Origin: Candidatus Bathyarchaeia archaeon
GTDB taxonomy: Archaea; Thermoproteota; Bathyarchaeia; Bathyarchaeales; Bathycorpusculaceae
DNA length: 38,338 nt
Reading direction: 5' to 3'
Assembly (NCBI GenBank): GCA_049512075.1
Contig: JBEKXL010000022.1
Coordinates: forward strand, 1 to 38,338
Part shown: in pieces, positions 1,792-26,350 of the stretch
How positions within the stretch are numbered: position 1 is the stretch's first letter
How the letters are laid out: every line of letters starts with the position of its first letter
Program-made: the position numbers and the translations under genes
The notes under the pieces: generated by a model
Databases searched by the model: none
What the model saw: only the letters and a program-made list of their open reading frames with translations
Told to the model about the DNA's origin: nothing

Positions 1792-2262
1792 GTGAGTCAA
1801 AATTCTGCTGACAGCGAAATCGAATCCAAACTCACAGGTACGACGCGTCGAGTATATGGTTGTCTTCTGGAATCTCCAGACGGCCAATCAGGCGTGCGCG
1901 AGATAGCCAGGAAACTCAACATCAAACATCCTTCCATAGTGCTATATCACCTTCAAAAACTGGAGGAACTTGGACTCGTATATCACACCAACACTGGAGC
2001 TTACTACCTAGTCAAAGAAGTTAAGGTCGGCGTCATGAGACTGTTTTTCCGGCTTCACGGGGTTCTCTTCCCACGGCTGTTCCTCTATTCAGTGCTTCTT
2101 TCGACAATGGTCATAATCTACGTTTGCGTCTACACACAGCCAATGCTCTCGTTGGGTCCCGGCTGGATCCTGGGATACGCGACGAGTCTATTGATATCCT
2201 TCATCGCCTGTGGTGTTCTATGGTTTGAAACAATCATGATTTGGAGGGAGAAACAATTCTAG
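1792..2262 (+). CDS. Winged-HTH transcriptional regulator with two C-terminal transmembrane helices
   Basis: GVREIARKLNIKHPSIVLYHLQKLEELGLV wHTH followed by two hydrophobic segments. Confidence 0.8.
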   Translation: MSQNSADSEIESKLTGTTRRVYGCLLESPDGQSGVREIARKLNIKHPSIVLYHLQKLEELGLVYHTNTGAYYLVKEVKVGVMRLFFRLHGVLFPRLFLYSVLLSTMVIIYVCVYTQPMLSLGPGWILGYATSLLISFIACGVLWFETIMIWREKQF

Positions 2263-2265
2263 ATA

Positions 2266-2287
2266 CTGTTCTAAACTGTAGATATAG
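2266..2287 (+). promoter_or_regulatory. Operator/promoter-like box, copy 2 (CTGTTCTAAACTGTAGATATAG)
   Basis: Matches the reverse complement of 1697-1720 with one substitution and a 2-nt indel; upstream of the 2326 gene. Confidence 0.5.
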
Positions 2288-2325
2288 AAGTCTGTTCTGT
2301 GCAGTAATAGGTGAATGAATAGACA

Positions 2326-3000
2326 ATGAGAAGAAGCATGAAATTCGCTCTCGTTGCGATTATGCTGGGCACTGCGTTAAGCTTGATTCCCTACCTTATA
2401 GTTTACAGCAGCACTGGTGGAAACATGTTTGGGACCAGTGGGCCCTTCTTTGATGATTTTGAGAGTCAAACTTTGAATAGTAGATGGAAGTTCGTAGATC
2501 CCCTTGGTAACTCTTCTCTCGACCTGAGCACACGCCAAGGCTGGTTGACGATGACCACGTATTCTCTCCCAAATCGGGGCATAGCGGACGGACCTCGTTT
2601 AGTTCTATCAGACATAACTGGTGACTTTCTCGTACGCACAAGGGTTCAATTATCATCGGCCAGCCCTAACGGTAGTGCTGGCATCATAATCTGGAGAGAC
2701 AGTGAGGACTACGTTTATCTCTACGACACTCTTGACCTTGGAAATACAATCATCTTTGGTGAAACGCGTGTCAAGGTAGCGCAAGACGCGCGCGCCTCCA
2801 ATTATCGTGCAATCGATCTCATTTTGAGCAAGCGAGGGGGTAATTTCACCGCTTCGTACATTTTTGAAGGTATCGAATTCCAGGTGGATACCCTCAGTTT
2901 CACAGTGACTGGTCCTCTGGATGTGGGAGTTTCGATTGCTTCAACTCATGGAGGCAGTTTCTCAGCTTCTTTTGACTTTTTAAGCCTAGCTCCCTATTAG
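2326..3000 (+). CDS. Exported ConA-like beta-sandwich protein (DUF1349 / beta-xylosidase C-terminal-like)
   Basis: N-terminal signal/TM; FFDDFESQTLNSRW, GDFLVRTRV, AGIIIWRDSEDY and ASFDFL motifs. Confidence 0.7.
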   Translation: MRRSMKFALVAIMLGTALSLIPYLIVYSSTGGNMFGTSGPFFDDFESQTLNSRWKFVDPLGNSSLDLSTRQGWLTMTTYSLPNRGIADGPRLVLSDITGDFLVRTRVQLSSASPNGSAGIIIWRDSEDYVYLYDTLDLGNTIIFGETRVKVAQDARASNYRAIDLILSKRGGNFTASYIFEGIEFQVDTLSFTVTGPLDVGVSIASTHGGSFSASFDFLSLAPY

Positions 3001-3074
3001 TACGGGTAGCGTAACGTGCTCTGACACGTTAACTAAGCCCGTGTCAAGTCGGCATTCACGTCAATCAGTCTTGT

Positions 3075-3326
3075 CTAAAAAATCTTGCCCAGAATCGTGT
3101 TTCTCAGCTCTGCGTATTTCTTCTCAAGATATTCTTTCAGTGCGGCGGTTTCTGACGTAAGCCTCGTCTTCACCTGAGTGTTCAGGTCTCTTGCTTTCAC
3201 AATGTCCTGTTCTATCTTTTCCAAGTCATGCTTTGCAGCGTATTTTAGTTCTTCAGTCTTCTTCAATACGTCCACCTTGATTTTTCGATAATGCCCATAT
3301 AGGCTTCTTTGTAAACTTCTCACCAC
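3075..3326 (-). CDS. Hypothetical small coiled-coil protein
   Basis: 83-aa K/E-rich heptad-like ORF; no recognisable motif. Confidence 0.45.
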   Translation of the reverse strand: MVRSLQRSLYGHYRKIKVDVLKKTEELKYAAKHDLEKIEQDIVKARDLNTQVKTRLTSETAALKEYLEKKYAELRNTILGKIF

Positions 3327-3371
3327 TTTTCGAACAGTTCTCCAACCTTAAGCAATTTCACAGACCGCGCG

Positions 3372-3626
3372 CGCCATTTCTTCGCGACAAAACTCTACCT
3401 TCAGACCCGAGACATCCACTACGTGCAGAAGAAGATGGGCCACAGGAGCATAACTATCACTACCATTAACGAGAACAGCGAGCCAAACCAGGACGTGGAG
3501 ACCTACACCGTCAAAGCTGTGACCACCCAAGAAGAAGCAGAAAAGCTTATGACTTTAGGCTACGAGTTCCATTATTGCATTCAAGAAGGAGTAGATCTGT
3601 TCCACAAAAAAAGTGATAGGACTTGA
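3372..3626 (+). pseudogene. C-terminal remnant of a tyrosine recombinase/integrase
   Basis: In-frame upstream extension reads RHFFATKLYLQTRDIHYVQKKMGHRSITITTIN (box II RH...GH...TT-x-Y, with Tyr replaced by Asn, AAC). Followed by the tail YTVKAVTTQEEAEKLMTLGYEF. N-terminal part absent. Confidence 0.7.
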
Positions 3627-4597
3627 CTGAAAGGAGCAACTTGAACAAGTATGTCGTCGGCTACGACGAGAAGACCCAGTGCTGGAAGCTAGATTTCGGT
3701 ACGCATTCCGTAGAGATTCAGAACACCTTTGCCGAAATGTTTCCGATGTGGGCTGGGAGAGTTCTGATTACAGCGGACATGGAAAAATGGGCTTTGATAG
3801 CTGCCGAAGTCGCAACTGGCTTGGCGACGAGCGTGATCATGTCCCCCGCTGAGGCTGGAATCGAAAGCTTCGTCCCAGCGGGCAAAACGCCGGACAGTCG
3901 AGTTGGCGTTCTGGTACAAGTGTACAATCGCAGCAGGTTCGAGCTAAACGGACAGATGATACTACGCATAGGGCAGTGTGTGATGACGTGTCCAACGACA
4001 TCGGCTTTTGACGCCATGCCGAACGCCAAGAGAACGCTGAAGGTGGGAAGAAGTCTATGCCTGTTCGGCGACGGGTTCCAGAGAAAGGGTTTGGTAGGAC
4101 CGCGAAAGGTTTGGAAAATCCCCGTGATGGAGGGCGACTTCATCGTTGAAGACCGGTTCGGCATCGCAGAAGCCATAGCAGGCGGCAACTTCATCATCTT
4201 CGCCCAAGAGAGAGCCTCGGGCCTCAAGGCCGCGGAGGAAGCTGTGAAAGCCATAAGAGCCGGGAAAAACGAGGTTATCATGCCCTTTCCGGGGGGAATC
4301 TGCCGTTCCGGCTCGAAAGCCGGTTCTCTGAAGTACAAGCTGAAAGCTTCCACGAATCATCCTTTCTGCCCGAGGTTGAGAGAGCTTGTGCCAGATTCGC
4401 AGGTGCCCGAAGGCGTGAAATGCGTTTACGAAATCGTCATCAACGGCCTGAGCCTTGAAGCGGTCAAGAAGGCCATGGGCGACGGTGTGAAGGCTGCGGC
4501 AGGCGTGCCCGGCGTGGTCAAGATTTCGGCGGGCAACTATGGCGGTAAAATAGGTCCTTACAAGGCGTTTCTGAAAGAGGCCTTAGAAACAACCTAG
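3623..4597 (+). CDS. ftr: Formylmethanofuran--tetrahydromethanopterin N-formyltransferase
   Basis: TFAEMF, EAGIE, RIGQCVMTCPTT, FGDGFQ, AGGNF, SGSK, ASTNHPFCP, YEIVING, ISAGNYGGK signatures. Confidence 0.96.
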   Translation: MTERSNLNKYVVGYDEKTQCWKLDFGTHSVEIQNTFAEMFPMWAGRVLITADMEKWALIAAEVATGLATSVIMSPAEAGIESFVPAGKTPDSRVGVLVQVYNRSRFELNGQMILRIGQCVMTCPTTSAFDAMPNAKRTLKVGRSLCLFGDGFQRKGLVGPRKVWKIPVMEGDFIVEDRFGIAEAIAGGNFIIFAQERASGLKAAEEAVKAIRAGKNEVIMPFPGGICRSGSKAGSLKYKLKASTNHPFCPRLRELVPDSQVPEGVKCVYEIVINGLSLEAVKKAMGDGVKAAAGVPGVVKISAGNYGGKIGPYKAFLKEALETT

Positions 4598-4665: not shown

Positions 4666-5931
4666 TTGAGTACCTCAAAAAAGACTTCCTTGGAACTGTT
4701 CAGACTCAAAAAGACACTGATGACGCTGGCCAGTAAGGAGGGGCGTGGAACTGAACTCGTCTCACTCTACGTTCCGCCTGGAAAACAGATAAGCGATGTT
4801 CTAAACACGCTCAGAGACGAGTATGGCACAGCGTCCAACATAAAGTCCACGACAACCCGGAAAAACGTCATGGACGCTATTGTGAAAGTCCAGCAGCGCC
4901 TTAAACTCTTCAAGGAACCGCCTGAAAACGGGCTGGTGATATTCTGCGGAGCCATCCCCCAGAACGGTGCCGGAAGCGAGAGAATCGAAACCTACGTGAT
5001 TATGCCGCCTGAACCGATACACATATACCTTTACAGGTGCGACGCGAGATTCCACACCGAGTACCTGCAGGAAATGCTGAGAGAAAAAGAAACCTACGGC
5101 ATACTCCTCATAGACTCCTCAGGCGCAACGCTCGCCACGCTTCAAGGCAGAAGGCTTGAAATAGTAAGGGAGATGACGTCAGGCGTGCCAGGCAAAACCC
5201 GCGCGGGTGGACAGTCTGCGAGAAGGTATGAAAGGCTCAGGGAGATGAGGCTTCAAGAATACTTCACGCGAGTAGGCGAACACGCAAACGAGATTTTTCT
5301 GCCCATTGAAAACTTGAAGGGCTTGATTATCGCTGGCCCTGGACCCACGAAGTACGATTTCGAAAAGGGCGAGTACCTCAATTACATGCTGAAGAATAAG
5401 ATCATAGACACCGTGGACACGGCTTACGTTGAGGAGCAGGGCGTCAAAGAAGTTGTTGAAAAAGCGCCGGAAGTGATGCGGAAGGTGCGCTACATAGAGG
5501 AGAGGAGGATAATGCAACAGTTTCTCTACGAAGTGGGGCATGACACGGGAAAAATCACTTACGGCGAAGAAGAAGTCAGGAGAGCCCTGGACGCGGGGGC
5601 CGTTAGGACGCTGCTGCTTTCAGAGGGACTGGAAATGACGAGAGTCACGGTGAAATGCAATGCCTGCGGCTACCAAGAACAGCACACGATGAAAAGCCAG
5701 ATGCTGACCAGTTTTGAGCAAGGCCTCTCGGGAAAACCTTGTCCAAAATGTAACGCGGCAGCCTTAGGCATTGTTGACACGCAGGATTTGATAGATGATT
5801 TCGCCAAGCTTGCAGAGTACACGAACACTGAGGTGGAGATAATATCAACCGAGACAGAAGAAGGACAGATGCTCAAGAACTCGTTCGGCGGAATAGCCGC
5901 GCTACTGCGCTTCCAGCTCCACGAACAGTAA
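4666..5931 (+). CDS. prf1: Archaeal peptide chain release factor aRF1
   Basis: TASNIKS, YRCD and GGQS motifs; CxxC..CxxC zinc-ribbon insertion in the C domain. Confidence 0.97.
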   Translation: MSTSKKTSLELFRLKKTLMTLASKEGRGTELVSLYVPPGKQISDVLNTLRDEYGTASNIKSTTTRKNVMDAIVKVQQRLKLFKEPPENGLVIFCGAIPQNGAGSERIETYVIMPPEPIHIYLYRCDARFHTEYLQEMLREKETYGILLIDSSGATLATLQGRRLEIVREMTSGVPGKTRAGGQSARRYERLREMRLQEYFTRVGEHANEIFLPIENLKGLIIAGPGPTKYDFEKGEYLNYMLKNKIIDTVDTAYVEEQGVKEVVEKAPEVMRKVRYIEERRIMQQFLYEVGHDTGKITYGEEEVRRALDAGAVRTLLLSEGLEMTRVTVKCNACGYQEQHTMKSQMLTSFEQGLSGKPCPKCNAAALGIVDTQDLIDDFAKLAEYTNTEVEIISTETEEGQMLKNSFGGIAALLRFQLHEQ

Positions 5932-7603: not shown

Positions 7604-8362
7604 CTAGACGTGAGTGCTGGAGTCGTAGGGTGCTTTGACGTAGGTGATGACTTCTACCGGGCATTCGCCCGAGAGCTTCAATGTCTTCTTCCATTCTTCT
7701 CCGACGGCTATGAGGAGGAAGACTCCTGACATTTCGGCTTTGGCTTTTTTGACGAGGTTGACGAGTGCGGCTTGGGTTTCTCCGCTTTTTATCATGTCAT
7801 CTACGACGAGTACGCTGTCGCGCTTTTTGATGGCTTCTTTTGGGATGTAGATTGTTGAGGTGACGCCTGAGCCTTTGAGGAGGACATAGGTTTCTTCGAG
7901 GAAGGCTTTAACGCCGACTTCTTTGGTTCGTTTCGCGACGACGAGGTTGACGCCGAGGGCGTTTGCTACCATGGTTGCGAGGGGTATGCCGTCTACCGCG
8001 GCTGAGAGCACTTTTGTTACGCGTTTTCCCGCGAAGTTTGCGAGGGCGTGGTTGGCGGCCTGTTGCAAGATGTTGTAGTCACCTATGATTTCAGTGTTAT
8101 CAAAGTATCCGTCTTCGTCGAACCTTATTCTGCTTCGCAGCTCGGGTTCCAGGCCGACAAGTCTCGTGAGGATTTTCCAGAGCTGCTTCGCCCGTGCCGT
8201 ATTGGGCAGGACGTGGCCTTTGGCGTACCGGCTGAGGACGGTTACGGGCAGGCCGGTTTTTGACGCTAGTTCGCGATAAGTTATGTTTCGTTTATACTTA
8301 GCAGTTCTGAGAAGCTCGATGGTCATCAACCGAAGCTTCAAATCCTCTGCATGCGTGCTCAT
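7604..8362 (-). CDS. HTH + type I phosphoribosyltransferase (archaeal Apt/PurR-like regulator)
   Basis: TYRELASKTGLPVTVLSRYAKGHVLP HTH; VLVVDDMIKSGET PRPP motif. Confidence 0.9.
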   Translation of the reverse strand: MSTHAEDLKLRLMTIELLRTAKYKRNITYRELASKTGLPVTVLSRYAKGHVLPNTARAKQLWKILTRLVGLEPELRSRIRFDEDGYFDNTEIIGDYNILQQAANHALANFAGKRVTKVLSAAVDGIPLATMVANALGVNLVVAKRTKEVGVKAFLEETYVLLKGSGVTSTIYIPKEAIKKRDSVLVVDDMIKSGETQAALVNLVKKAKAEMSGVFLLIAVGEEWKKTLKLSGECPVEVITYVKAPYDSSTHV

Positions 8363-8668
8363 AACAACAGCCTCATATACACTGATAAGTCAAACCCTAG
8401 CGTGTTCTCCTTCTATTATTGCTTTTGCGATATATACTTTGCTGGGTTAGAGAAGAGCGCGTTGATGACGTCTGCTTCCAAGCGCGTTAATAATGTGAAC
8501 CGTGATACTCGCGAAGCCGCAAAGTTAAGGCAGTATTACAACCTAACGTTAGTCAGTAGGTAGGGTTCCAGAATGAGCTTTGTTCTCAGCTCGTTCAATC
8601 TTCCAGTTGCGCGTGAGGACTTTTTCCCTAGTGGTTGCTGCTGAGAATGGTAGGAGCTTCGTGCGAGG

Positions 8669-12459: not shown

Positions 12460-14250
12460 ATGCAATTTACAACTAGACCAGTTTTGATGGGAACTAATGG
12501 CATGGTTACTTCGACGCACTATCTTGCTTCTCAAGCTGGATTCTGCAGCCTCAAGCGGGGAGGCAATGCTGTTGACGCCGGAGCCACCATGTGGTTCTGC
12601 CTAACCATCCTCGAACCACATCTAGTCGGCGTCGCAGGCGAATCGCCCATCCTAATATACTCAGCTGACGAAGAGAAAGTGATCGCAGTCAACGGTCAAG
12701 GTCCAGCCCCAAAAGCAGCCACCATAGACTGGTTCAAAGAACACGGCTACGATCTGATCCCTCCAGACGGTTTCTTGCCGGCTGTCGTTCCCAGTGGCTT
12801 CGACACGTGGGTCAAGACCTTGGACAAGTTTGGAACCATGACGCTCGAAGAGGTTCTGGAACCTGCCATAGAGTTGGCAACTAAAGGTTTTCCAATCTAT
12901 CCGGAGCTTAGAAGAAGCTTAACTGAACCTAATCAACAGGTCGGCTATTCCATAAACGGGAGCAAAGTGAAATCACGACCGTTGAGCGTTGCTGAAAGAT
13001 TCCTTGAAGAATGGCGTTCTTCAGCCGAGATATACCTCGTTGAGGGACAGGTGCCTCTGGTTGGGCAAGTTATCCGTAATCCGGAGTGGGCTCGCACTTT
13101 TGAGGAGGTTGTGAAGGTCGAGAAGAAAGTTCGAAAAAACGGACGCGAGGCAGGTCTACAGGCAGCCCGAGACTATTTCTACTCAGGCCCCATCGCTCAG
13201 AAAATAGTCAAATTTATGCAGACTTTCGAGTGCCGAGACGTCTACGGCAAAGAACATCACGGTCTTCTCAGCCTAGAAGACTTGGCGGAGTACAGTGCGC
13301 GTTTCGAAGAACCGGTCACGGTCAAGTACCACGAGTATGACGTTTACAAGTGTGGACCTTGGACGCAGGGTCCAGTGCTACTGCAGCATCTGAATCTGCT
13401 CGAGGGTTTTGATCTGCGACAGATGGGTCACAACACGGTTGACTATCTTCACACGTGGGTTGAGTGCGCCAAACTTGCGTTCGCCGACCGCGAACAATAC
13501 TACGCTGACCCTGACTATGTCAAAGTGCCCTTGGATAGGCTTCTTTCAAAAGAATACGCTGACCGTCGCCGCACGCTCGTTGATCCATATCATGCATCTA
13601 TGGAGCTAAGGCCGGGGGGAAAGGCGCCTGCCAAACTGAAACCTGAAAATGTAGGGCAATCAGAGGGTGACACTGTGCATTTGGAGGCTGTGGACAGGTT
13701 TGGAAACATGATTTCCGCAACGCCCAGTGGCGCTTGGATTTCCACTTCGCCTATAATACCTGGCTTGGGGTTCTGCATGAACACTCGGGCTCAAATGTTC
13801 CATCTTGACGCCAGCCATGTCGAAAGATTAGAGTCGGGCAAAAAGCCGAGCACTACTCTAAGCCCCAGTCTGGTAATGAAAGAAGAAGAGCCTTACTTGA
13901 CCTTCGGCACTCCTGGAGCCGATCAGCAAGATCAATGGACCCTCCAATTTTTCCTGAATCACGTGGACTTTGATATGGACATTCAACTTGCTTTGGATAA
14001 GCCGACTGTTCACTCAACTCACTTTCCTGGTTCATTCTGGCCTCACGCGGCTCACCCTGGAGTCATGCACGTAGAACCAGGTATATCGGAGGAGGTGATT
14101 CTGGGACTCAAGAAGAAGGGACACAAAGTAATCGTGGACGAGCCGTGGAGCCACGGTCGCTGTTTGGCCATTCAGTACGATGTCAACACCGGGGTAATAT
14201 CTGGTGGAGCGTCGCCCCGTGGAATGAAAGCCTACGCGATAGGATGGTAG
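12460..14250 (+). CDS. ggt: Gamma-glutamyltransferase-family Ntn-hydrolase
   Basis: GGNAVDA, KLAFADR, GD|TVHL (Thr nucleophile), TLSP, FGTPGADQQ, GGASPR. Confidence 0.9.
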   Translation: MQFTTRPVLMGTNGMVTSTHYLASQAGFCSLKRGGNAVDAGATMWFCLTILEPHLVGVAGESPILIYSADEEKVIAVNGQGPAPKAATIDWFKEHGYDLIPPDGFLPAVVPSGFDTWVKTLDKFGTMTLEEVLEPAIELATKGFPIYPELRRSLTEPNQQVGYSINGSKVKSRPLSVAERFLEEWRSSAEIYLVEGQVPLVGQVIRNPEWARTFEEVVKVEKKVRKNGREAGLQAARDYFYSGPIAQKIVKFMQTFECRDVYGKEHHGLLSLEDLAEYSARFEEPVTVKYHEYDVYKCGPWTQGPVLLQHLNLLEGFDLRQMGHNTVDYLHTWVECAKLAFADREQYYADPDYVKVPLDRLLSKEYADRRRTLVDPYHASMELRPGGKAPAKLKPENVGQSEGDTVHLEAVDRFGNMISATPSGAWISTSPIIPGLGFCMNTRAQMFHLDASHVERLESGKKPSTTLSPSLVMKEEEPYLTFGTPGADQQDQWTLQFFLNHVDFDMDIQLALDKPTVHSTHFPGSFWPHAAHPGVMHVEPGISEEVILGLKKKGHKVIVDEPWSHGRCLAIQYDVNTGVISGGASPRGMKAYAIGW

Positions 14251-14324: not shown

Positions 14325-15449
14325 ATGGAGCTGGATGTGAAAAGTGTGATACCAGAATATGACCAGTTGAATTGGGTCATCATTCATGGCAGAGGAGTGC
14401 TTAACACTGGTCACGCGGGTACGTTCGCTCGCATTCTGGCAACTGCGGGCGTGGTCTCAGGACGAGAATCGTATTATTATATGAGATATGATGACTCTCC
14501 TGAACGGGATAACATACCCATGATTTTCTACACTGTCATGGGTAACCCTCGAATAGACGTCACCTTGCACGAAGAGGTTGAGCCTGTCGGAGAGGTTTTC
14601 AGCGCCATAGTCGTGATGGAGCCCACGATACTCGTCAGCCAGACTTCTCAGAGGGCGTTGCTGTTCGACGGTGCGAAGAAAGACGCTGTTCTTGTTGTAA
14701 ACACATCGTTATCGCCGAAGGAAATCACACGATTGGTGAAGAAGAGGTGCCTCGCGCAGGACTGGTGTGGAAAACTAGTTACGATAAGAGCCAGAGAGTA
14801 CGATGCTAACATCGCGTTTCCTCTGTTAGCCGCGTTGGTAAAGGGTTGGAGTGTTGTGAGCCTCGATGACTTACTGGATGCGCTTGATTCCGCTGGGCAC
14901 GGAGACAAGACTGGTTTGGTGAAAAGAGTCTATTCTGATGTGGAACCGGTTGAGGTCAGAATCAATGCGAAGGAAACGATGATGGCGCAGACTAGAAAGT
15001 CAAAATCATCCTGCAAATTCAAAAAGGGAACGTGGGATTCGGAGACGTACCGGAGCTACCAAAAGGCCGCGGCCGAAGCATTATCCTACGCCGAAAGAAT
15101 AAAAGCGATGCCGCCGTGGCAGGCTTTGTCCCCTGGGCTGATCGAATTCGGCCCTTCCCAGAATAAGAAAAACGTGGGGTTCACAACCTCTTTCGCTAGA
15201 TTCCTCAGACCCACGATAGATAAGAGCAAGTGTACTGATTGTAAGATGTGTTCTCTTTACTGTCCAGACGGTGCAATCGACTCCAAGCGCATTGAGGTAG
15301 ATTTGAACTATTGTAAGGGTTGCGGCATATGTGCGCGGATGTGCCCCTCGAAAGCTATAAACATGATAAGCGAACTGCTGGCGGAGGAAGGGCTGACTGA
15401 GAAGGAAATAACCGCGATTGAAGATGCACTCGTCGAGTATGGTTACTAG
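14325..15449 (+). CDS. 2-oxoacid:ferredoxin oxidoreductase gamma+delta fusion (oxalate oxidoreductase delta-like)
   Basis: HGRG N-terminus, LVVNT, two CxxCxxCxxxCP 4Fe-4S motifs; start placed at ATG 14325, after the GGT stop. Confidence 0.88.
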   Translation: MELDVKSVIPEYDQLNWVIIHGRGVLNTGHAGTFARILATAGVVSGRESYYYMRYDDSPERDNIPMIFYTVMGNPRIDVTLHEEVEPVGEVFSAIVVMEPTILVSQTSQRALLFDGAKKDAVLVVNTSLSPKEITRLVKKRCLAQDWCGKLVTIRAREYDANIAFPLLAALVKGWSVVSLDDLLDALDSAGHGDKTGLVKRVYSDVEPVEVRINAKETMMAQTRKSKSSCKFKKGTWDSETYRSYQKAAAEALSYAERIKAMPPWQALSPGLIEFGPSQNKKNVGFTTSFARFLRPTIDKSKCTDCKMCSLYCPDGAIDSKRIEVDLNYCKGCGICARMCPSKAINMISELLAEEGLTEKEITAIEDALVEYGY

Positions 15450-15452
15450 AAG

Positions 15453-16703
15453 GTGAAAATCGTGAGCACGCCGAAGACTGCTTCAAAATCTCTTACTAAA
15501 ACTGTGCCCAAGATATTCATGTGGACGGGAACGCGGGCAATAGCTGAAGCCGTGAAGCTTGCGGACGTTGACGTTATAGCTGCGTACCCTATTAGACCGT
15601 ACACTGGAGTCATGAACTCTCTGGCCAAGATGCTGGCTGACGGAGAGTTTGCCGCTGAGATAATAGGTGCAGATTCTGAACATTCACAGTTTGAAATAGC
15701 CAAACACGCGTCCGCGGTTGGAGCTAGAACCTTCGTAGGAAGCTCAGGCGTGGGCTTGACGTACGCGGCAGAACCGATAGTCGTCACGGCCATGGGACAA
15801 CTGCCCGTCGTCGCCATGGCCGGTTGCAGGGCTCTTGATGATCCGGGCAACTTCGGAATGGAATGGAACGATGTACTCACTTTTAGAGATCACGGGTGGC
15901 TTATGTCTTGGGCCAAAGATCCTCAAGAAGCCTTGGACATGACGCTGGTCGCGTACAGAGTCTCTGAAGACCGCAGGGTGCTTCTGCCAAGCTTTGTCGC
16001 AGTGGACGGCGCCGCGATAACACACATATCTGCTCCCGTCGAGCCGCCCAGCAGAGAAGGAGTTGCAAAGTTTCTCCCCCCGTACAAGCCTCAGTACCCG
16101 CTCGATCCAGCTTATGGACCTATAACTAAGGCACAGCACATAGCCCCTTCCCTCATAGGCCCCGAGCTTCGAAAAGTAGTGGATAACGCGATGGCACAAG
16201 CTAGGGAAGTGATCCAAGAAGCCTGGAAAGATTATGCAGGTTTCGTTGGAAGAGAGTATCCACCATTCATCGAGAACAAGTACATTGAGGATGCGGAAAT
16301 AGCCCTTGTGACCATGGGAGCCTATGCCAAAGACGCGGTGCACGTTGCCACAAAACTTCGACAAGAAGGCGTCAAGGTCGGCATCGTCAGGATGCGGTAT
16401 TTCCGACCCTTCCCACAGAGGGAACTTGCTGAAGCCCTGGGGAAAGTTAAGGCTGTAGGGGTGGTTGACTTTTCGTATTCTTTCGGCTCTGCAGACTCTT
16501 CAAGCGTGTTGTTTAACGAGGTTAGATCAGCATTGTATGAGAGCGGTTCACGTCCGCTGTTGATGGACTTCATGTTCGTCGGTGGTAGAGAGCCTTCTGT
16601 CGAGCATTTTGAGCAGGCTGTTAGACTGTTGCAGAAAGGTGCAGGGAAGGGAGCGGTTGAGAAACACGTGTGGTGGCCCACGCTGAGAGGTGAGAGTCCA
16701 TGA
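15453..16703 (+). CDS. 2-oxoacid:ferredoxin oxidoreductase alpha subunit (oxalate oxidoreductase-like)
   Basis: AYPIRPYT, SEHS, GSSGVG, FRPFP. Confidence 0.9.
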   Translation: MKIVSTPKTASKSLTKTVPKIFMWTGTRAIAEAVKLADVDVIAAYPIRPYTGVMNSLAKMLADGEFAAEIIGADSEHSQFEIAKHASAVGARTFVGSSGVGLTYAAEPIVVTAMGQLPVVAMAGCRALDDPGNFGMEWNDVLTFRDHGWLMSWAKDPQEALDMTLVAYRVSEDRRVLLPSFVAVDGAAITHISAPVEPPSREGVAKFLPPYKPQYPLDPAYGPITKAQHIAPSLIGPELRKVVDNAMAQAREVIQEAWKDYAGFVGREYPPFIENKYIEDAEIALVTMGAYAKDAVHVATKLRQEGVKVGIVRMRYFRPFPQRELAEALGKVKAVGVVDFSYSFGSADSSSVLFNEVRSALYESGSRPLLMDFMFVGGREPSVEHFEQAVRLLQKGAGKGAVEKHVWWPTLRGESP

Positions 16704-17683
16704 GCGAACGGCCTTTGATCAGAGCCGTCAGAGACGTTCCTTCAGTAGACCTGTACACGAGTGGTCACAGAACGTGCGCTGGCTGCGGGGCAGCCTTGGG
16801 TTACCGTCTGTTGCTTAAGGCGGCGGGTCCCAAAACGGTGGTTCTCGGCCCAACCGGATGCATGTACGTGGCGAACGGGCATCAGTTCTTGTCCTCGCCC
16901 TATTCCGTGCCTTGGTATCACACTCAGCTTGGTGCTGGAGGAGCTGCAGGCGTTGGAACGGCAGCGGCTTTCAGAAGTCTGATGATGAAGGGGAAGAGGA
17001 AGAAGGAAGACGTTAACGTCGTTGTCTATGGTGGAGACGGCGGAACCGGCGACATGGGGTTCTCAGGGTTATCGATGGCCATGGGCTACGATTACAAGAG
17101 GTTTCTGTACGTACTGTACGATAACGAATCATACGCCAACACGGGGATTCAGGCGTCAAGCACAACTCCCTGGGGAGCTTCGACAACGTTCACGCCTGTG
17201 GGCAAAATAAAAAGAATTGGCAACCTGAGAATGAAGAAGAACGTGGCCTTGATAATCGCCGCACACCCTGGTGTTAGATACGTTGCAACTGCTACGCTGT
17301 ACCCCCCTTTGGACTTCATCAACAAGACGAAGAAAGCCTTGGAGGCCGAAGGCCCAGCGTTTATTCATCTGCTAGTCCCCTGCCCGAAGGGCTGGTTCAC
17401 CGATCCAAAGTACACGCTGGACCTGAGCAGAAGCGCTTTAGAGACGGGGCTCTGGGTCTCATGGGAGTATGAAAACGGAGAATTCAGCTTGACCTATAGG
17501 CCGGAACCAAGAAAACACGTGAAGGAATATCTGAGAATGCAAAAAAGGTTCGAACACCTGACCGACGACAAAATTGAAGAAATAGAAAGAATGACCGCCA
17601 AAGAATGGGATTACTGGAAAGAGATGGACGAGCAGAAAAAAATGATGATTCCTTGGGTAGCTCCACCGTGGCCAGCATCCTAA
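16700..17683 (+). CDS. 2-oxoacid:ferredoxin oxidoreductase beta (TPP-binding) subunit
   Basis: GHRTCAGCG, GPTGCMYVAN, GGDGG...DNESYANTGIQ, PCPKGW. Confidence 0.92.
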   Translation: MSERPLIRAVRDVPSVDLYTSGHRTCAGCGAALGYRLLLKAAGPKTVVLGPTGCMYVANGHQFLSSPYSVPWYHTQLGAGGAAGVGTAAAFRSLMMKGKRKKEDVNVVVYGGDGGTGDMGFSGLSMAMGYDYKRFLYVLYDNESYANTGIQASSTTPWGASTTFTPVGKIKRIGNLRMKKNVALIIAAHPGVRYVATATLYPPLDFINKTKKALEAEGPAFIHLLVPCPKGWFTDPKYTLDLSRSALETGLWVSWEYENGEFSLTYRPEPRKHVKEYLRMQKRFEHLTDDKIEEIERMTAKEWDYWKEMDEQKKMMIPWVAPPWPAS

Positions 17684-17697
17684 GGAAGTAGCGCATG

Positions 17698-18468
17698 CTA
17701 GGTTCGCTTCCTTCTTCTGATCAAGAACACGACAAGTACTACGAGAATCGCTGCCAAAACCCCTATGATCAGGTAGCGTGATACGCCGGCAACCTCTCGC
17801 CAGTTGGCGCCTAGGTACACGCCTATATAAATTAGAAAGGCGTTCCAGAATAGACACCCACCCGTTGTGTATGCGACGAACTTCCGTAGCGGCATCTTCA
17901 CCGCGCCTGCCGGAAATGATACCAGTGTTCTGAACCCCGGGATCATGCGGCTCAGAAATACGGCGAGGCCACCGTATTTGCTGAACCACCTCTCGGCCAT
18001 TTCGAGACGTGCTTTGTTGAAAAGGAGTCTGTCCAGAGCTTTTCGCCGGGCGAGCAGGTTTGCTCCCTTCATTCCAATGTAGTAGTCAACCAGCGAACCC
18101 GTTATTCCTGCAAGAGTTGAAACCCCGATGGTTATCCAAACGTTGAGCAGACCTTGAGAAACGAGGTAGCCGGAGAACGGAAGTATGACCTCGCTTGGAA
18201 TCGGCAGAGAGCTCGCCTCAAGCAACATCAACAAGAAGATTCCTGCATACCTCCAAGACGAGACTGTTGCGGTAACCCTCTGCGTAAGCGTCACTATAGC
18301 GTTCAATATCATAGCGAGGGGTGTACCTGTGAACGAGCCTCCCTCGATCAAAGTGTCTTCCAAGGTATCCAACAAAATGATTGCAATCACAATGGCAACT
18401 ATCGCTAGAAGCAGCAGCTGCGGTGCCTTTCCTTTCAGTCTCTCAAGATTTTTTTGAGGCTTCAACAA
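17698..18468 (-). CDS. DedA family membrane protein
   Basis: LPIPSEVILPFSGY, RMIPGFRTLVSFPAG. Confidence 0.93.
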   Translation of the reverse strand: MLKPQKNLERLKGKAPQLLLLAIVAIVIAIILLDTLEDTLIEGGSFTGTPLAMILNAIVTLTQRVTATVSSWRYAGIFLLMLLEASSLPIPSEVILPFSGYLVSQGLLNVWITIGVSTLAGITGSLVDYYIGMKGANLLARRKALDRLLFNKARLEMAERWFSKYGGLAVFLSRMIPGFRTLVSFPAGAVKMPLRKFVAYTTGGCLFWNAFLIYIGVYLGANWREVAGVSRYLIIGVLAAILVVLVVFLIRRRKRT

Positions 18469-19083: not shown

Positions 19084-19749
19084 ATGCAAGCAAAAAGGGC
19101 CTTGTTGGTAGCAATTCTGCTGGTAATAGTGGCGGCTGCTGTCTTTGTGGGAACTCAAGTCTGGACGGGCTTCAACAGTGGAACGAGCCCATCACCGTAC
19201 CAAGAAATCAGGGAATACAATGGAACGAACCTCGGATCAATAAATGATTTTCAGAATGAGGCGATAGCGGGCACGCAGTACATCAACGTAAGCACTTACA
19301 GGCTTGTTGTAACGGGTCTTGTGAGTAAAGAAATGGTCTACACGTACGACGAAGTCGTTAACAATCACGCGCATTACGAGAAAGTTGTCACGCTCCACTG
19401 CGTGGAAGGCTGGCAAGTCACAGCTCTATGGGAGGGTGTACTTGTGAAAGATCTTCTGGAAGATGCTGGATACAATCAAACTGCTCAGGTTGTGATATTC
19501 TATGCCCAGGACGGATACACAACGAGTCTCCCCCTCTCTTACGTAATCAGCAACGACACGATGTTGGCCTACAAAATCAACGGTGTCATCCTCCCCCCAG
19601 AACGAGGCTTCCCCCTCCGACTGGTGGCTGAAGGCAAGTTGGGGTACAAGTGGATAAAGTGGATAACGAAGATCGAAGTATCTAACGACACCAGCTTCCG
19701 AGGCTACTGGGAAGGCTACGGATACAGCAATGATGCAAACTATCCATGA
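19084..19749 (+). CDS. Molybdopterin-dependent oxidoreductase (sulfite oxidase/MsrP family), membrane anchored
   Basis: LHCVEGW, DGYTTSLP, RGFPLRLV, GYKWIKWITKIE, GYWE..GY. Confidence 0.93.
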   Translation: MQAKRALLVAILLVIVAAAVFVGTQVWTGFNSGTSPSPYQEIREYNGTNLGSINDFQNEAIAGTQYINVSTYRLVVTGLVSKEMVYTYDEVVNNHAHYEKVVTLHCVEGWQVTALWEGVLVKDLLEDAGYNQTAQVVIFYAQDGYTTSLPLSYVISNDTMLAYKINGVILPPERGFPLRLVAEGKLGYKWIKWITKIEVSNDTSFRGYWEGYGYSNDANYP

Positions 19750-19898
19750 TCACTAGTTCCTTGTGCGTTTCTGCGAAGGCAAATCATTCACGGGCATGAA
19801 ACTACCAATTGCCACTGGCGCGCGTGCACATTGAGCATGCAGAATTGAGAGAATCTTTATGCGTTGGGCAATGTTAGCTGTGTGAAGGCAATGGGACG

Positions 19899-20246
19899 AT
19901 GACTACAAAAAAAGACAGTAACTACTTGCAGAGGTTCAATCGTCTGCTCGTTTGGTTTACGCTCGTGCTGTTCATACTGCTTGTACTCTCAGGGTATGGC
20001 ATGACAAACCCAGAGGTCACGACTAGACTGACCGGAGGAATCTTCACTACTGCTTTTTCAATGTACCTGCACGTAAACTTGGTCGCGCCTGTTCTCATAT
20101 TGCTGTTGATTCACGTCTTGATCGGAATGAAAACCGCTCTAACTCGCTTGGGAATAGAAGAAGGATGGCTGCTGAACACTTTTCTGATTGTACCGGGTCT
20201 CTTCGCGGCTGCTCTGATCATTCTCATGCGGTATCTGACATTCTAA
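19899..20246 (+). CDS. Three-TM membrane protein, possible heme b partner
   Basis: Three hydrophobic helices; His in YLHVN and LIHVL. Confidence 0.65.
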   Translation: MTTKKDSNYLQRFNRLLVWFTLVLFILLVLSGYGMTNPEVTTRLTGGIFTTAFSMYLHVNLVAPVLILLLIHVLIGMKTALTRLGIEEGWLLNTFLIVPGLFAAALIILMRYLTF

Positions 20247-23428: not shown

Positions 23429-26350
23429 TTATTCTATGTAGATCGCTGGGCGGTAGGGTTTGGCGAGTTGTGCCCTCTGTTTGGGGTCGTGGCGTTTAGT
23501 GTCTTCTTCGTTGAAAACGTGGATTTCTGCGTTCAGCTCTTTCTGGAAGAAGCTTTTTGCTTCTTCTAACGCTTCGCTCTCGTCAACAATCCCAGTTTGC
23601 ACTCGTCTCTGTTTTGTTTCTTCAGATGTTCGGTTGATTTCGTCTGCTATTTGGCCAGTGAACTTGGCTACTTCTTCAGCGTTTGCCCTCAAGTCGGGTT
23701 CTTGCATAAGCTGTTTCATGAGGTCTTTCTGCAGGACTTTTGCTGAGGCGGATTTTTCGAGGGCTTTCAGGTAGGTCTTCCATTTCCACGCGGCGGCCAC
23801 ATAGTAGCATACTCTTTTCGGTTTTGCACCTGTGGCTTTCATAATGTTCTGGGTGTCTGCGAGCACGTTCATGATGAAGGTCTCGTTTTCTTCAGCTTTG
23901 ACGTCCATTTTGGATTCGTCGGCTGTTGGCCAGGGTGTTCGGGTGATAAAGTCTTTTCCGCCGAGCATTTCCCATATTTCTTCGCACACGTGCGGGGCTA
24001 CTGGTGCCAGCATCCGTGTTTGGGCGTCTAGGACCTCGTGGAACACTTGGGCTGTTGCGGCTTTTCTTTTCGGGTTTTCCTTTTCGTCTGCGATGCGTTC
24101 CTGGTACCATTGGAAGTCTTGGTCCAGCTCATAGAGCGCGGTGTGTATGGCTTTGCGAACGGCGAGTTTGTTCATGGCTTTAGTTGCGTTTCTGATGTGC
24201 TGGTTCAGTCTGCTGAGCATCCACCTATCTATCGCTGGCAGCGTGATCTTTGGTGATTTCTTCCGTGGGGTCTTGGCGGTTTCGGAGGCGAATCTGTAGA
24301 GTTTTTCCAGTCTGTCTCGCATTGATTTGGCTATTGTGGGGCTGAAGTCGGAGTCTTGGAGTAGTTCAGCTGTGGAGACGACGCTGAGTCTTATCGGGTC
24401 TGCGCCGAACGTGGCGAGTCCTTCGCGTAGTGGTATGATGTTTCCGAAAGATTTGCTCATTTTTGCTCCTTCCATCATTACGCTGCCGTTGGTGGCTATC
24501 TGGCGAGGCCAATGTTTCTCTGGGAATATTGCGGTGTGGTTGAATATCATGAAGGTCAGGTGGTTGGGTACCAAGTCGCGTCCTGAGTGACGGCTGTCCA
24601 GTGGGTAAAAGTATGAGAATTCGGTGCGCATTTGTTCGACAGTTTTGATGTTCAGGCCGGATTTTTTAGCAAGTTCTGTCAGGTTTCCTTTTCCTAGAAA
24701 GATGTAGTCGAAAACGTCGGTCGTGAGCTGATCTGGCTGAATTTTGTTTTCTTTGATTGTTTTGACTATCGTGTAGTAGGCCATGTAGATTGTTGAGTCT
24801 GAGAGTGATTCGATGATCCAGTCCTTGTCCCATGGTAGGCGTGTGCCCATGCCTGATTTTCTTGCACAGGCTTTTTCGTGCAGCCAGTCGATGACGTTGT
24901 TGAATTCTTGTCGGAGTTCCTCGGGCAGTATTTCCATGTTATCCAGGTTCTTGTGTGCTAGTGTTTTCCATTCGGGGTTTCCGTAGTCGATGAACCATTG
25001 GTCTTGGACGATTTTGACGATGCACTCCGTCTTGCAACGGCACAACACGGGCCTGTTGAGCAGCTCGTACATGGTTGTGGCCTCGCCTTCTTGGATAAGG
25101 TCCTGTTTGACCTTGTCTTTCGCTTCAGCCACTGACATGCCAGCGTACTTGCCCGTGTTCGCTTTCATTTTTCCGTTGTGGAACTCGTGTCTGTAAACCT
25201 CTTTCGTGGCGTCCTCCAGTTTCGGGTCCGTCTGCTCTCGTATGTTCATTTTCTTGACCGCGTCGGCTGCTGGAATATCGGAGTATTCTTTGACTTCGAT
25301 GAGCGAGATGGGCTGGACAGAGTTTACGTCTTCAGCTGTTATTCCGTATTGTTTCAGTTTCTGCGGTTCTTTCTTTATGTTTTCTAGGGCGACGTAGTCG
25401 TACGGAGCGTGGCCTGGGACTGACATGACGACGCCTGTCGCGTTTTTGGGCTCAACAAAATCCGCTGGGAGTATGAGGATGTTCTTTCCTGTAGCTGGGT
25501 TTTGGACGTGTTTTCCTATGAGCTCTCTGCCTTCGACGGTCTCTTGGACTTTGACTTCTCGATTTTGGTTGGCGAGTTTTTCAGCGCTTTGTTGGCTGAT
25601 TATCCACTGTTCGCCGTCAACTGTGGCTTTGACGTATTTTGTGTTGGGGTTTAGCCAGATGTTTGTGACGCCGAATACTGTTTCAGGCCTTAACGTGGCG
25701 GCTGGATAGAAGGTGTTACCTTGCGTGAATTTGATGAGTGTGAATTCGCCTATTTCTGGTTCAACATCGCCGTCGGTGTCATGTTGGCCAACTGGGTTTC
25801 CGTCTTTGGGGCACCAGCCGACTGGATGGCTTCCTTGCGTAATGTATCCGCCTTGGCGTAGTTTTTGGAATTGCCATTCTATGAAGCGATTATAGTGCGG
25901 GTCGACTGTGGTGAATTCGCGTCTCCAGTCTATTGAGTAGCCTATTTCTTTCATGCCGGTTTTGATTTCTTGGTGGAAGTAGCGGGCCATGGCGATGGGT
26001 TCTGTGAGTTCCTTAAGCTTTTCTTTTGGAATCTTGTAGACGTTGATGAAGTCGCTGATTAGGCCTTTGTCGTTGTCTGCGAGACGTTTGGCCATGGCCA
26101 GAACTGGCGTGCCGGTGTAATGGAAGGCCATTGGCAACAGTGTGTTGTAGCCGCGCATTCGCATGTACCGTGCGTGGACATCTGCCATGGTGTAGGTTCT
26201 TCCGTGGCCGATGTGCTGGGGACTGTTGGGGTAGGGGTAGGCTACGGTTACAAAGTACTTAGGTTTGGACGGTTCTGGGTCTGTCTCGAAGATTCTGGCT
26301 TTTTCCCACTTTTTCTGCCATTTTTCCTCGATTTTTTTCAAAAACTCCAT
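23429..26350 (-). CDS. leuS: Leucine--tRNA ligase (archaeal type)
   Basis: HIGH, KMSKS, editing domain GTG-like GVVMSVPGHAPYD, C-terminal PYRPAIYIE. Confidence 0.97.
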   Translation of the reverse strand: MEFLKKIEEKWQKKWEKARIFETDPEPSKPKYFVTVAYPYPNSPQHIGHGRTYTMADVHARYMRMRGYNTLLPMAFHYTGTPVLAMAKRLADNDKGLISDFINVYKIPKEKLKELTEPIAMARYFHQEIKTGMKEIGYSIDWRREFTTVDPHYNRFIEWQFQKLRQGGYITQGSHPVGWCPKDGNPVGQHDTDGDVEPEIGEFTLIKFTQGNTFYPAATLRPETVFGVTNIWLNPNTKYVKATVDGEQWIISQQSAEKLANQNREVKVQETVEGRELIGKHVQNPATGKNILILPADFVEPKNATGVVMSVPGHAPYDYVALENIKKEPQKLKQYGITAEDVNSVQPISLIEVKEYSDIPAADAVKKMNIREQTDPKLEDATKEVYRHEFHNGKMKANTGKYAGMSVAEAKDKVKQDLIQEGEATTMYELLNRPVLCRCKTECIVKIVQDQWFIDYGNPEWKTLAHKNLDNMEILPEELRQEFNNVIDWLHEKACARKSGMGTRLPWDKDWIIESLSDSTIYMAYYTIVKTIKENKIQPDQLTTDVFDYIFLGKGNLTELAKKSGLNIKTVEQMRTEFSYFYPLDSRHSGRDLVPNHLTFMIFNHTAIFPEKHWPRQIATNGSVMMEGAKMSKSFGNIIPLREGLATFGADPIRLSVVSTAELLQDSDFSPTIAKSMRDRLEKLYRFASETAKTPRKKSPKITLPAIDRWMLSRLNQHIRNATKAMNKLAVRKAIHTALYELDQDFQWYQERIADEKENPKRKAATAQVFHEVLDAQTRMLAPVAPHVCEEIWEMLGGKDFITRTPWPTADESKMDVKAEENETFIMNVLADTQNIMKATGAKPKRVCYYVAAAWKWKTYLKALEKSASAKVLQKDLMKQLMQEPDLRANAEEVAKFTGQIADEINRTSEETKQRRVQTGIVDESEALEEAKSFFQKELNAEIHVFNEEDTKRHDPKQRAQLAKPYRPAIYIE

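Follow-up and report, generated by a model that had tools for sequence, protein, structure and literature searches.

An oxalate-oxidoreductase-like operon in a Bathyarchaeia genome, with asparagine at the position of the switch aspartate

To our knowledge, oxalate oxidoreductase (OOR) is the only 2-oxoacid:ferredoxin oxidoreductase (OFOR) known to work without coenzyme A (CoA), and the mechanism proposed for it rests on one enzyme from one bacterium, Moorella thermoacetica. We take its active site to include R31, R109, D116, F117, and Q211 of the alpha subunit and N143 of the beta subunit. Roles for R31, R109, and D116 of alpha are described in PMC5020499. Here, we analyze a stretch of 38,338 nucleotides from a Candidatus Bathyarchaeia archaeon (assembly GCA_049512075.1, contig JBEKXL010000022.1), hereafter the window, and within it a three-gene operon at positions 14325-17683 whose product resembles OOR and has Asn in place of Asp116. 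The window is contig C22 of an archaeal genome of 2.73 Mb that is 99.76% complete.

We propose that this operon encodes a CoA-independent oxalate-type oxidoreductase, which would convert oxalate to CO2 with the reduction of ferredoxin, and we give this proposal an even chance. The original prediction, made from the window alone, was a CoA-independent OFOR acting on oxalate or a relative. Its OOR-like assignment stands. The data show the homology of the three subunits, their architecture and cofactor motifs, the placement of the clade, and the states of individual residues; the substrate and the independence from CoA, like any role for the loop residue Asp130 discussed below, are inferred. The cut-offs of the OOR equivalog models are missed.

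Subunits, motifs, and structural matches

Three co-oriented and nearly abutting open reading frames (ORFs) encode, in this order, a fused gamma-delta subunit, an alpha subunit, and a beta subunit (Table 1). Extended to an alternative GTG start at 14145, the gamma-delta gene would run into the upstream gene over about 100 nt. The exact start of alpha is uncertain, as are its N-terminal 20 or so residues. In Pfam searches, alpha matches POR_N (PF01855, E-value 3.4e-47) and PFOR_II (PF17147, 2.7e-24), and beta matches PF02775 (TPP_enzyme_C, 3.4e-16). Gamma-delta matches ferredoxin-type (Fer4) families alone, at residues 296-347, with no match to PF01558. In this subunit, domain III comes first and has a degenerate Gly-rich loop; a long linker then leads to a ferredoxin domain at the C terminus, which has two [4Fe-4S] motifs, CTDCKMCSLYCP and CKGCGICARMCP. 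Beta carries the GDGG...NTG motif for binding thiamine pyrophosphate (TPP), the cysteines of the proximal [4Fe-4S] cluster, and GHRTCAGCG. Given these domains and the cysteine and TPP motifs, the product of the three genes is classified as a member of the OFOR superfamily.

When each subunit was compared with all PDB chains using phmmer, the best match was in every case M. thermoacetica OOR. Alpha matches 5c4i_A with an E-value of 1.1e-98 (334 bits), ahead of 9bt4_B (2.7e-64, 221 bits), and beta matches 5c4i_C (3.9e-90) ahead of the beta chain of 9bt4 (8.7e-67, 229 bits). The match of gamma-delta to 5c4i_B (3.4e-16) is carried mainly by the ferredoxin part. The NCBIfam models of OOR are likewise the top profile match for all three subunits, and the delta model, NF045790, aligns over residues 14-351 of gamma-delta.

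The structure of gamma-delta was predicted with AlphaFold2 from 44 sequences, with a predicted local distance difference test (pLDDT) of 85.2 and a predicted template modelling score (pTM) of 0.88. A Foldseek search with this model retrieved the OOR delta chains 5exd/5c4i/5exe as best matches (E-values of 8e-19 to 8e-17), with template modelling scores on the target of 0.72-0.82 over 340-360 columns. Pyruvate:ferredoxin oxidoreductase (PFOR, also POR) came next (about 5e-12); POR gamma subunits on their own matched the first domain only. In the model, the fold is OOR delta-like over its full length. The linker, at residues ~215-290, is helical, basic, and of lower confidence (pLDDT 62-69); the ~60 extra residues of the window subunit are likely placed there.

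The motifs quoted in the original prediction (HGRGVLN, YPIRP, RALDDPGNFG, GHRTCAGCG, and GPTGCMYVAN) are all found in the translations of 14325-17683. In the alignment to 5c4i_A, R126-A-L-D-D-P-G-N133-F-G of the window alpha lies under R109-T-L-D-P-P-G-D116-F-G of OOR. This bears out the replacement of the Moorella Asp116 by Asn, here Asn133 (codon 15849-15851), and puts Asp130 at the place of OOR Pro113. The beta subunit has the OOR-type motifs GPTGCMYVAN and YDNESYANTGIQ, where 9bt4 beta reads NPTGCLEVMT and VDNEAYMNTGIQ, and the Asn of its YANTG corresponds to OOR Asn143-beta when counted in the beta alignment. Four of the six OOR active-site residues that we listed above are kept in the window enzyme and two are changed. 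The loss of the Gly-rich GRGGQG motif, also part of the original prediction, was confirmed against two gammas of the same genome, on contigs C2 and C17, that belong to POR or 2-ketoisovalerate:ferredoxin oxidoreductase (VOR) sets: they read HGRGGQG where the window gamma-delta reads HGRGVLNTG. We assume that the GGQG loop of domain III binds CoA. Judged on sequence, these motif matches are features of strongly homologous proteins and not chance.

Three clades and the state of the switch position

A search of the window alpha against 1.84 billion cluster representatives returned few full-length ones above the POR-like bulk: P0121 (61% identity), P0122 (48%), P0124 (47%), and P0123 (44%). Representatives bearing YPIRP have three types of loop, namely DPPGDFG (P0123, P0133), DDPGAFG, and the DDPGNFG of the window. 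Among the 120 closest homologues of the window alpha, the switch position is Asn in 118 and Ser in 2. Further homologues of P0122 all read DDPGAFG (119/119), and the 118 homologues of P0123 comprise 114 with D[PA]PGDFG, 3 more that retain the Asp, and 1 without such a loop motif. In related genome loci, R[AS]LDDPGNFGMEW is found wherever the region is included (34/34). The Asn type is found in metagenome-assembled genomes (MAGs) of Bathyarchaeia, Desulfurococcales, Sulfolobales, Fervidicoccaceae, Thermoplasmatota, Methanomethylicia, and Nitrososphaeria. The Ala type, according to source names, is found in bacteria (NC10, Binatia, Nitrospinota, Dehalococcoidia, Tectomicrobia, and Armatimonadota). 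The nearest public loci are in Bathyarchaeia MAGs, with alpha subunits up to 97% identical in amino acids, and the metagenomes carrying the stretch come from peat, wetland, and sediment.

We built a quick maximum-likelihood tree of 165 alphas, of which 35 are of the Asn/Ser type, 24 of the Ala type, 19 of the Asp type, and 87 of the POR/VOR type, including the two paralogues from the window genome. The Ala and Asp lists consist of every fifth full-length protein. A careful tree was made from a subsample of 68 rows (every second or third row), with a bootstrap that is not fully settled (correlation 0.982). In these trees, the true-OOR clade is labelled by its NF045791 scores and its DPPGDFG motif, the Moorella sequence itself being outside the tree. 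In the careful tree, the archaeal Asn, bacterial Ala, and true-OOR (Asp) clades each have a support of 100/100, the first two are sisters (99/97), and the three YPIRP clades together are split from the POR/VOR-type rows (96/86). The quick tree has the same topology. Thus, as the original prediction had it, the enzyme is OOR-like: it does not cluster with POR/VOR, and it has neither YPITP nor separate gamma and delta subunits. With OOR it shares three subunits of which one is a fused domain III-V subunit, both arginines, the beta motifs, and the degenerate domain III loop. Within the OOR-like (YPIRP) branch of OFORs, the operon belongs to a clade of archaeal sequences that is uncharacterised.

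The three clades have many features in common. The Arg of YPIRP is present in all rows of the archaeal clade (35/35), of its bacterial sister (24/24), and of true OOR (19/19), whereas the POR/VOR-type rows mostly have Thr (76 of 87). Further alpha residues common to the three clades and rare in POR/VOR-type alphas are Y50, Q79, G96, D129, G132, F134, G135, and W153, besides R48 itself, and the same is true of TGCMYVAN and YDNESYANT in beta. In all three clades, delta is fused and contains RY.DSPER, and three residues are inserted at the place of the GGQG of POR gammas. The domain III loop itself reads HGRGV[ILW][HN]TG in the archaeal clade, YRGI[FY]QK in the bacterial sister, and ARGVVMN in M. 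thermoacetica OOR.

The original prediction described the loop as an Asp-to-Asn change, a wording that implies a departure from an OOR ancestor. This does not fit the tree, as Asn is invariant across a whole archaeal clade that lies outside true OOR. In the 87 POR/VOR-type rows, the Asn133 column is Asn in 37, Ser in 23, Thr in 9, and Gly in 8. It holds Asn in Methanosarcina acetivorans PFOR and, by alignment, Ile in M. thermoacetica PFOR; Ile123 of PFOR is presumably a contact of pyruvate. The nearest outgroup rows have S, N, N, G, S, and N, the deep-branching P0151 has Ser, and parsimony on this column gives Ser as the bottom-up set on the outgroup side. The ancestral state would therefore have been uncharged, Asn or Ser. 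Since these two residues are the commonest in the POR/VOR outgroup and Asn is fixed in the archaeal clade, it is more likely that Asp is derived, an innovation of the Moorella-type (true-OOR) clade. The window enzyme is better described as a member of an archaeal sister lineage in which the Moorella aspartate never arose. Position 130 is Asp in both the Asn and the Ala clades and Pro in true OOR. An acidic residue may thus sit at a different place in the loop, Asp130 for Asp116, a lead that consists of clade-level fixed differences, i.e., of one or two events, and is not evidence of covariation.

Two other sequences deserve mention. P0151 has LPIRP and RVLDQPGSFGPEM, with an LDQPGSFG loop, and forms a long branch separate from the three YPIRP clades, possibly a fourth lineage of OOR-like enzymes. 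A Bathyarchaeia orthologue of alpha (G267:C328:10712-11953) contains an in-frame TGA, which may be a sequencing error, a pseudogene, or a case of recoding.

Genomic context and candidate substrates

The window encodes formylmethanofuran:tetrahydromethanopterin (H4MPT) formyltransferase (Ftr), aRF1, and leucyl-tRNA synthetase, which together confirm that the host is an archaeon with C1-carrier metabolism. Ftr is one of the Wood-Ljungdahl genes of this host, CdhC being found elsewhere in the genome. Besides the operon, the genome carries two POR/VOR-type sets of the canonical kind, those of C2 and C17, in which gamma and delta are separate subunits, and a third, more distant homologue of alpha.

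Table 1. Positions of the operon, its motifs, and other genes in the window
Feature	Position	Strand	Remark
Formylmethanofuran:H4MPT formyltransferase	3623-4597	+	
aRF1	4666-5931	+	
Gamma-glutamyltranspeptidase (GGT)-family gene	12460-14250	+	ends 75 nt upstream of the operon
Fused gamma-delta ("delta"-type) subunit	14325 (ATG)-15449	+	374 aa; from the ORF list
HGRGVLN loop, domain III of gamma-delta	14385-14405	+	POR gamma counterpart: HGRGGQG
Alpha subunit (domains I + II)	15453-16703	+	416 aa from GTG 15453; POR_N + PFOR_II
YPIRP, alpha residues 45-49	15585-15599	+	Arg48 = OOR Arg31-alpha
Switch-loop equivalent R126-A-L-D-D-P-G-N133-F-G, alpha residues 126-135	15828-15857	+	alignment to 5c4i_A
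Beta subunit (domain VI)	16700-17683	+	327 aa; TPP_enzyme_C
DedA/VTT-family membrane protein	17698-18468	-	just downstream of the operon; also in loci L005 and L006
Sulfite-oxidase/MsrP-like molybdopterin oxidoreductase + small membrane protein	19084-20246	+	after the DedA gene
Leucyl-tRNA synthetase	23429-26350	-	

The order gamma-delta, alpha, beta is conserved in 37 archaeal loci, and in these no neighbour beyond the three genes is found in more than 5 of the 37. The commonest, in 5/37 loci, is a major facilitator superfamily (MFS) transporter of the oxalate/formate-antiporter (OFA) family. That of locus L011 passes the oxalate/formate antiporter equivalog TIGR04259 (382.9 vs 335) and that of L022 passes the family model TIGR00890 (405 vs 374.85), whereas those of L021, L030, and L031 are below the cut-offs. 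L011, a Bathyarchaeia locus, has its antiporter-type gene at 2219-3613 (minus strand) and, downstream, a formamidase/acetamidase-family gene at 7629-8525 (plus strand).

In the Ala-type sister clade, we analyzed 80 metagenome loci (L042-L121), many of them on contigs that end early, so that the counts are lower bounds. The typical order is a GntR/FCD regulator, gamma-delta, alpha, beta, and a transporter. The regulator is found in at least 27 of the 80 loci, MFS proteins in at least 10, TctC in at least 10, and TctB and TctA in at least 7 each. All the MFS proteins tested (6/6) pass TIGR04259, with 456-479 bits against a cut-off of 335. The MFS neighbours are the strongest pointer to oxalate, and they concern clades without Asp116. 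Some Ala-type loci also have PdxS/PdxT (SOR_SNZ, SNO) genes upstream.

To place the operon within the class, an even sample of 301 Bathyarchaeia genomes was searched for the operon (E<=1e-120) and for OFA-family matches (E<=1e-60). The operon was found in 17 genomes, an OFA-family match in 37, and both in two, G137 and G218; in the latter, the operon and the OFA gene are ~1.8 kb apart on the same contig. The operon is patchy, being absent from all 48 other sampled genomes of the same family. This patchiness, in a genome that already has two canonical POR/VOR sets, fits an accessory catabolic enzyme. The classical CoA-dependent route of oxalate was looked for in the window genome: the best match to oxalyl-CoA decarboxylase (oxc) has 138.7 bits for a cut-off of 739, and formyl-CoA transferase (frc) gave none.

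Two peat metatranscriptome libraries contain short contigs that are 90-98% identical to parts of all three genes. In library X19, 18 of 30 bins are covered, mostly inside 14340-17615, and in X20, 9 of 30. The flanks are mostly uncovered, except for short pieces in the upstream GGT gene and in the downstream DedA gene. This is a weak hint that the operon is transcribed in peat, as the contigs come from relatives and may reflect DNA carry-over.

HpxW, an oxamate amidohydrolase of the GGT family, converts oxamate to oxalate (PMC5270733). The GGT gene of the window is linked to the operon only there and in loci L005-L008: it is directly upstream and on the same strand in L005, L007, and L008, and farther away and inverted in L006. 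We considered whether its product could be an oxamate amidohydrolase and rejected this in view of the narrow linkage and of its match to 6j3a (441 bits), far above that to 5hft (71.8 bits), which we take to be HpxW; it is kept as a lead only.

Alpha and beta hold TPP and the proximal cluster, and the fused gamma-delta two more [4Fe-4S] clusters. The reaction is most likely that of Moorella OOR and could proceed as follows. The substrate, a C2 acid that is small and doubly polar and is most probably oxalate, would be bound between Arg48 and Arg126, where the TPP ylide would attack it and CO2 would be released. The three clusters would then relay two electrons to ferredoxin, without the formation of an acyl-CoA. 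The Moorella switch Asp116 is not used, an ancestral-like, uncharged Asn being kept at its place and an extra Asp lying three residues earlier in the loop. In this organism, the archaeal Wood-Ljungdahl pathway could take up the CO2 and the reduced ferredoxin.

Several observations weigh against this proposal. None of the three subunits reaches the cut-off of its OOR equivalog model (387.5 vs 500 for alpha with NF045791, 352.7 vs 590 for beta with NF045792, and 94.7 vs 230 for delta with NF045790), and in a control the true-OOR representatives P0123 and P0133 both exceed the cut-off of NF045791 (583.1 and 532.7 bits). The window alpha lies inside a separate archaeal clade, not nested in true OOR, and 19 alpha differences between the two clades are fixed. 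The changed active-site residues are Asp116, now Asn, and Gln211, which aligns with His229. The window genome has no OFA-family transporter (best match 50.6 bits) and no conserved neighbour that points to oxalate. Across the sampled Bathyarchaeia, OFA-family matches are not enriched where the operon is present (2/17 genomes with it vs 35/284 without). The OFA family carries other small carboxylates too, and on these MFS proteins the L-lactate model SfMCT comes close to its own cut-off or exceeds it. Finally, we found no biochemical data for any member of the clade in the searchable literature. Abstracts and literature listings gave nothing on an archaeal OOR, or on OOR or YPIRP in Bathyarchaeota, a point on which the primary OOR papers and their phylogeny may bear.

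Part of this evidence would suit an enzyme of the same type whose substrate is a different C2-C3 acid, also small and either polar or anionic (glyoxylate, oxamate, mesoxalate, or hydroxypyruvate, for example), with Asn133, His229, and Trp138 retuning the pocket and CoA either needed or not. The subunits' scores under the equivalog cut-offs, the fixed differences from true OOR around the active site, the missing OFA transporter, and the lack of enriched co-occurrence are all in line with it, and the GGT-family amidase upstream of the operon (window, L005, L007, and L008) and the L011 formamidase hint at amide- or ureide-type feedstocks. We nevertheless regard it, although the main rival, as possible but rather unlikely: both arginines and the beta motifs are identical to those of OOR, and genes of the oxalate/formate-antiporter type are the one kind of functional neighbour that recurs in both sister clades. 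As for the amidase, it is much nearer to ordinary GGTs than to 5hft, and it is linked to the operon nowhere but in the window and its four closest relatives. An ordinary CoA-dependent isoenzyme, oxidizing pyruvate or 2-ketoisovalerate, is what public annotation implies by naming close homologues "pyruvate ferredoxin oxidoreductase alpha subunit". The 304.9 bits of alpha with the PorA_Arch model agree with such a name, as does Asn at the switch-loop column, which is the commonest POR/VOR-type state. It is highly improbable for an alpha that has Arg for the Thr of YPITP and is separated by the trees from the POR/VOR-type rows (96/86), in an enzyme with a lost Gly-rich domain III loop and fused gamma and delta, encoded by a genome already equipped with two canonical POR/VOR-type sets.

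The oxalate proposal may also be stated for the clade as a whole. In this form, a widespread archaeal clade, in Bathyarchaeia, Thermoprotei-type orders, Thermoplasmatota, Methanomethylicia, and non-ammonia-oxidising Nitrososphaeria, would oxidise oxalate, yielding CO2 and reduced ferredoxin, and would need neither CoA nor the Asp116 switch. We judge this to be a little short of even. A bolder alternative, in which the clade would have a substrate specificity new to OFORs, seems to us roughly half as probable as this archaeal oxalate oxidation.

Implications and comparison with known systems

Two large and conserved sister clades, the archaeal one with Asn and the bacterial one with Ala, keep both arginines and the mobile loop, and lack the proposed catalytic Asp. 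If both are OORs, they offer a direct test of the proposed mechanism, and anaerobic oxalate oxidation would reach archaea, including peat Bathyarchaeia with Wood-Ljungdahl genes. The bait-and-switch Asp would then be a lineage-specific refinement and no requirement of one-carbon TPP chemistry, and peat Bathyarchaeia would be able to couple oxalate from plants or fungi to the archaeal Wood-Ljungdahl pathway. If they are not OORs, they would represent a new specificity among OFORs. In both cases, thousands of database entries named "pyruvate ferredoxin oxidoreductase" are probably mislabelled.

The closest described system is M. thermoacetica OOR (EC 1.2.7.10; 5c4i, 5exd, and 5exe). Like the window enzyme, it has three subunits, a fused domain III-V "delta", three [4Fe-4S] motifs, the Arg of YPIRP, the second Arg (R109/R126), a Phe after the switch residue, GPTGCMYVAN and YDNESYANTGIQ with Asn143-beta in the beta subunit, and a lost Gly-rich loop. 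The window enzyme differs from it by N133 (D116 in OOR), D130 (P113), H229 (Q211), and W138 (the His of G-x-E-H), by a domain III that is only ~22% identical to that of the Moorella delta, and by the length of this subunit (374 vs 315 aa). Its host is archaeal, and its clade is sister-of-sister to true OOR.

The bacterial Ala-type clade, which includes Methylomirabilis and is uncharacterised and annotated as POR, shares with the window the gene order gamma-delta, alpha, beta, the LDDPG-x-FG loop with the extra Asp, YPIRP, and RY.DSPER. It differs in having Ala at the switch position and YPIRPYD where the window has YPIRPYT. The four-subunit PFOR of M. acetivorans (9bt4) is of the same superfamily, with the same domain set and with Asn at the Asn133 column. 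Unlike the window enzyme, it has YPITP, separate gamma and delta subunits, a SAPINIW loop, and different beta motifs, and it is CoA-dependent.

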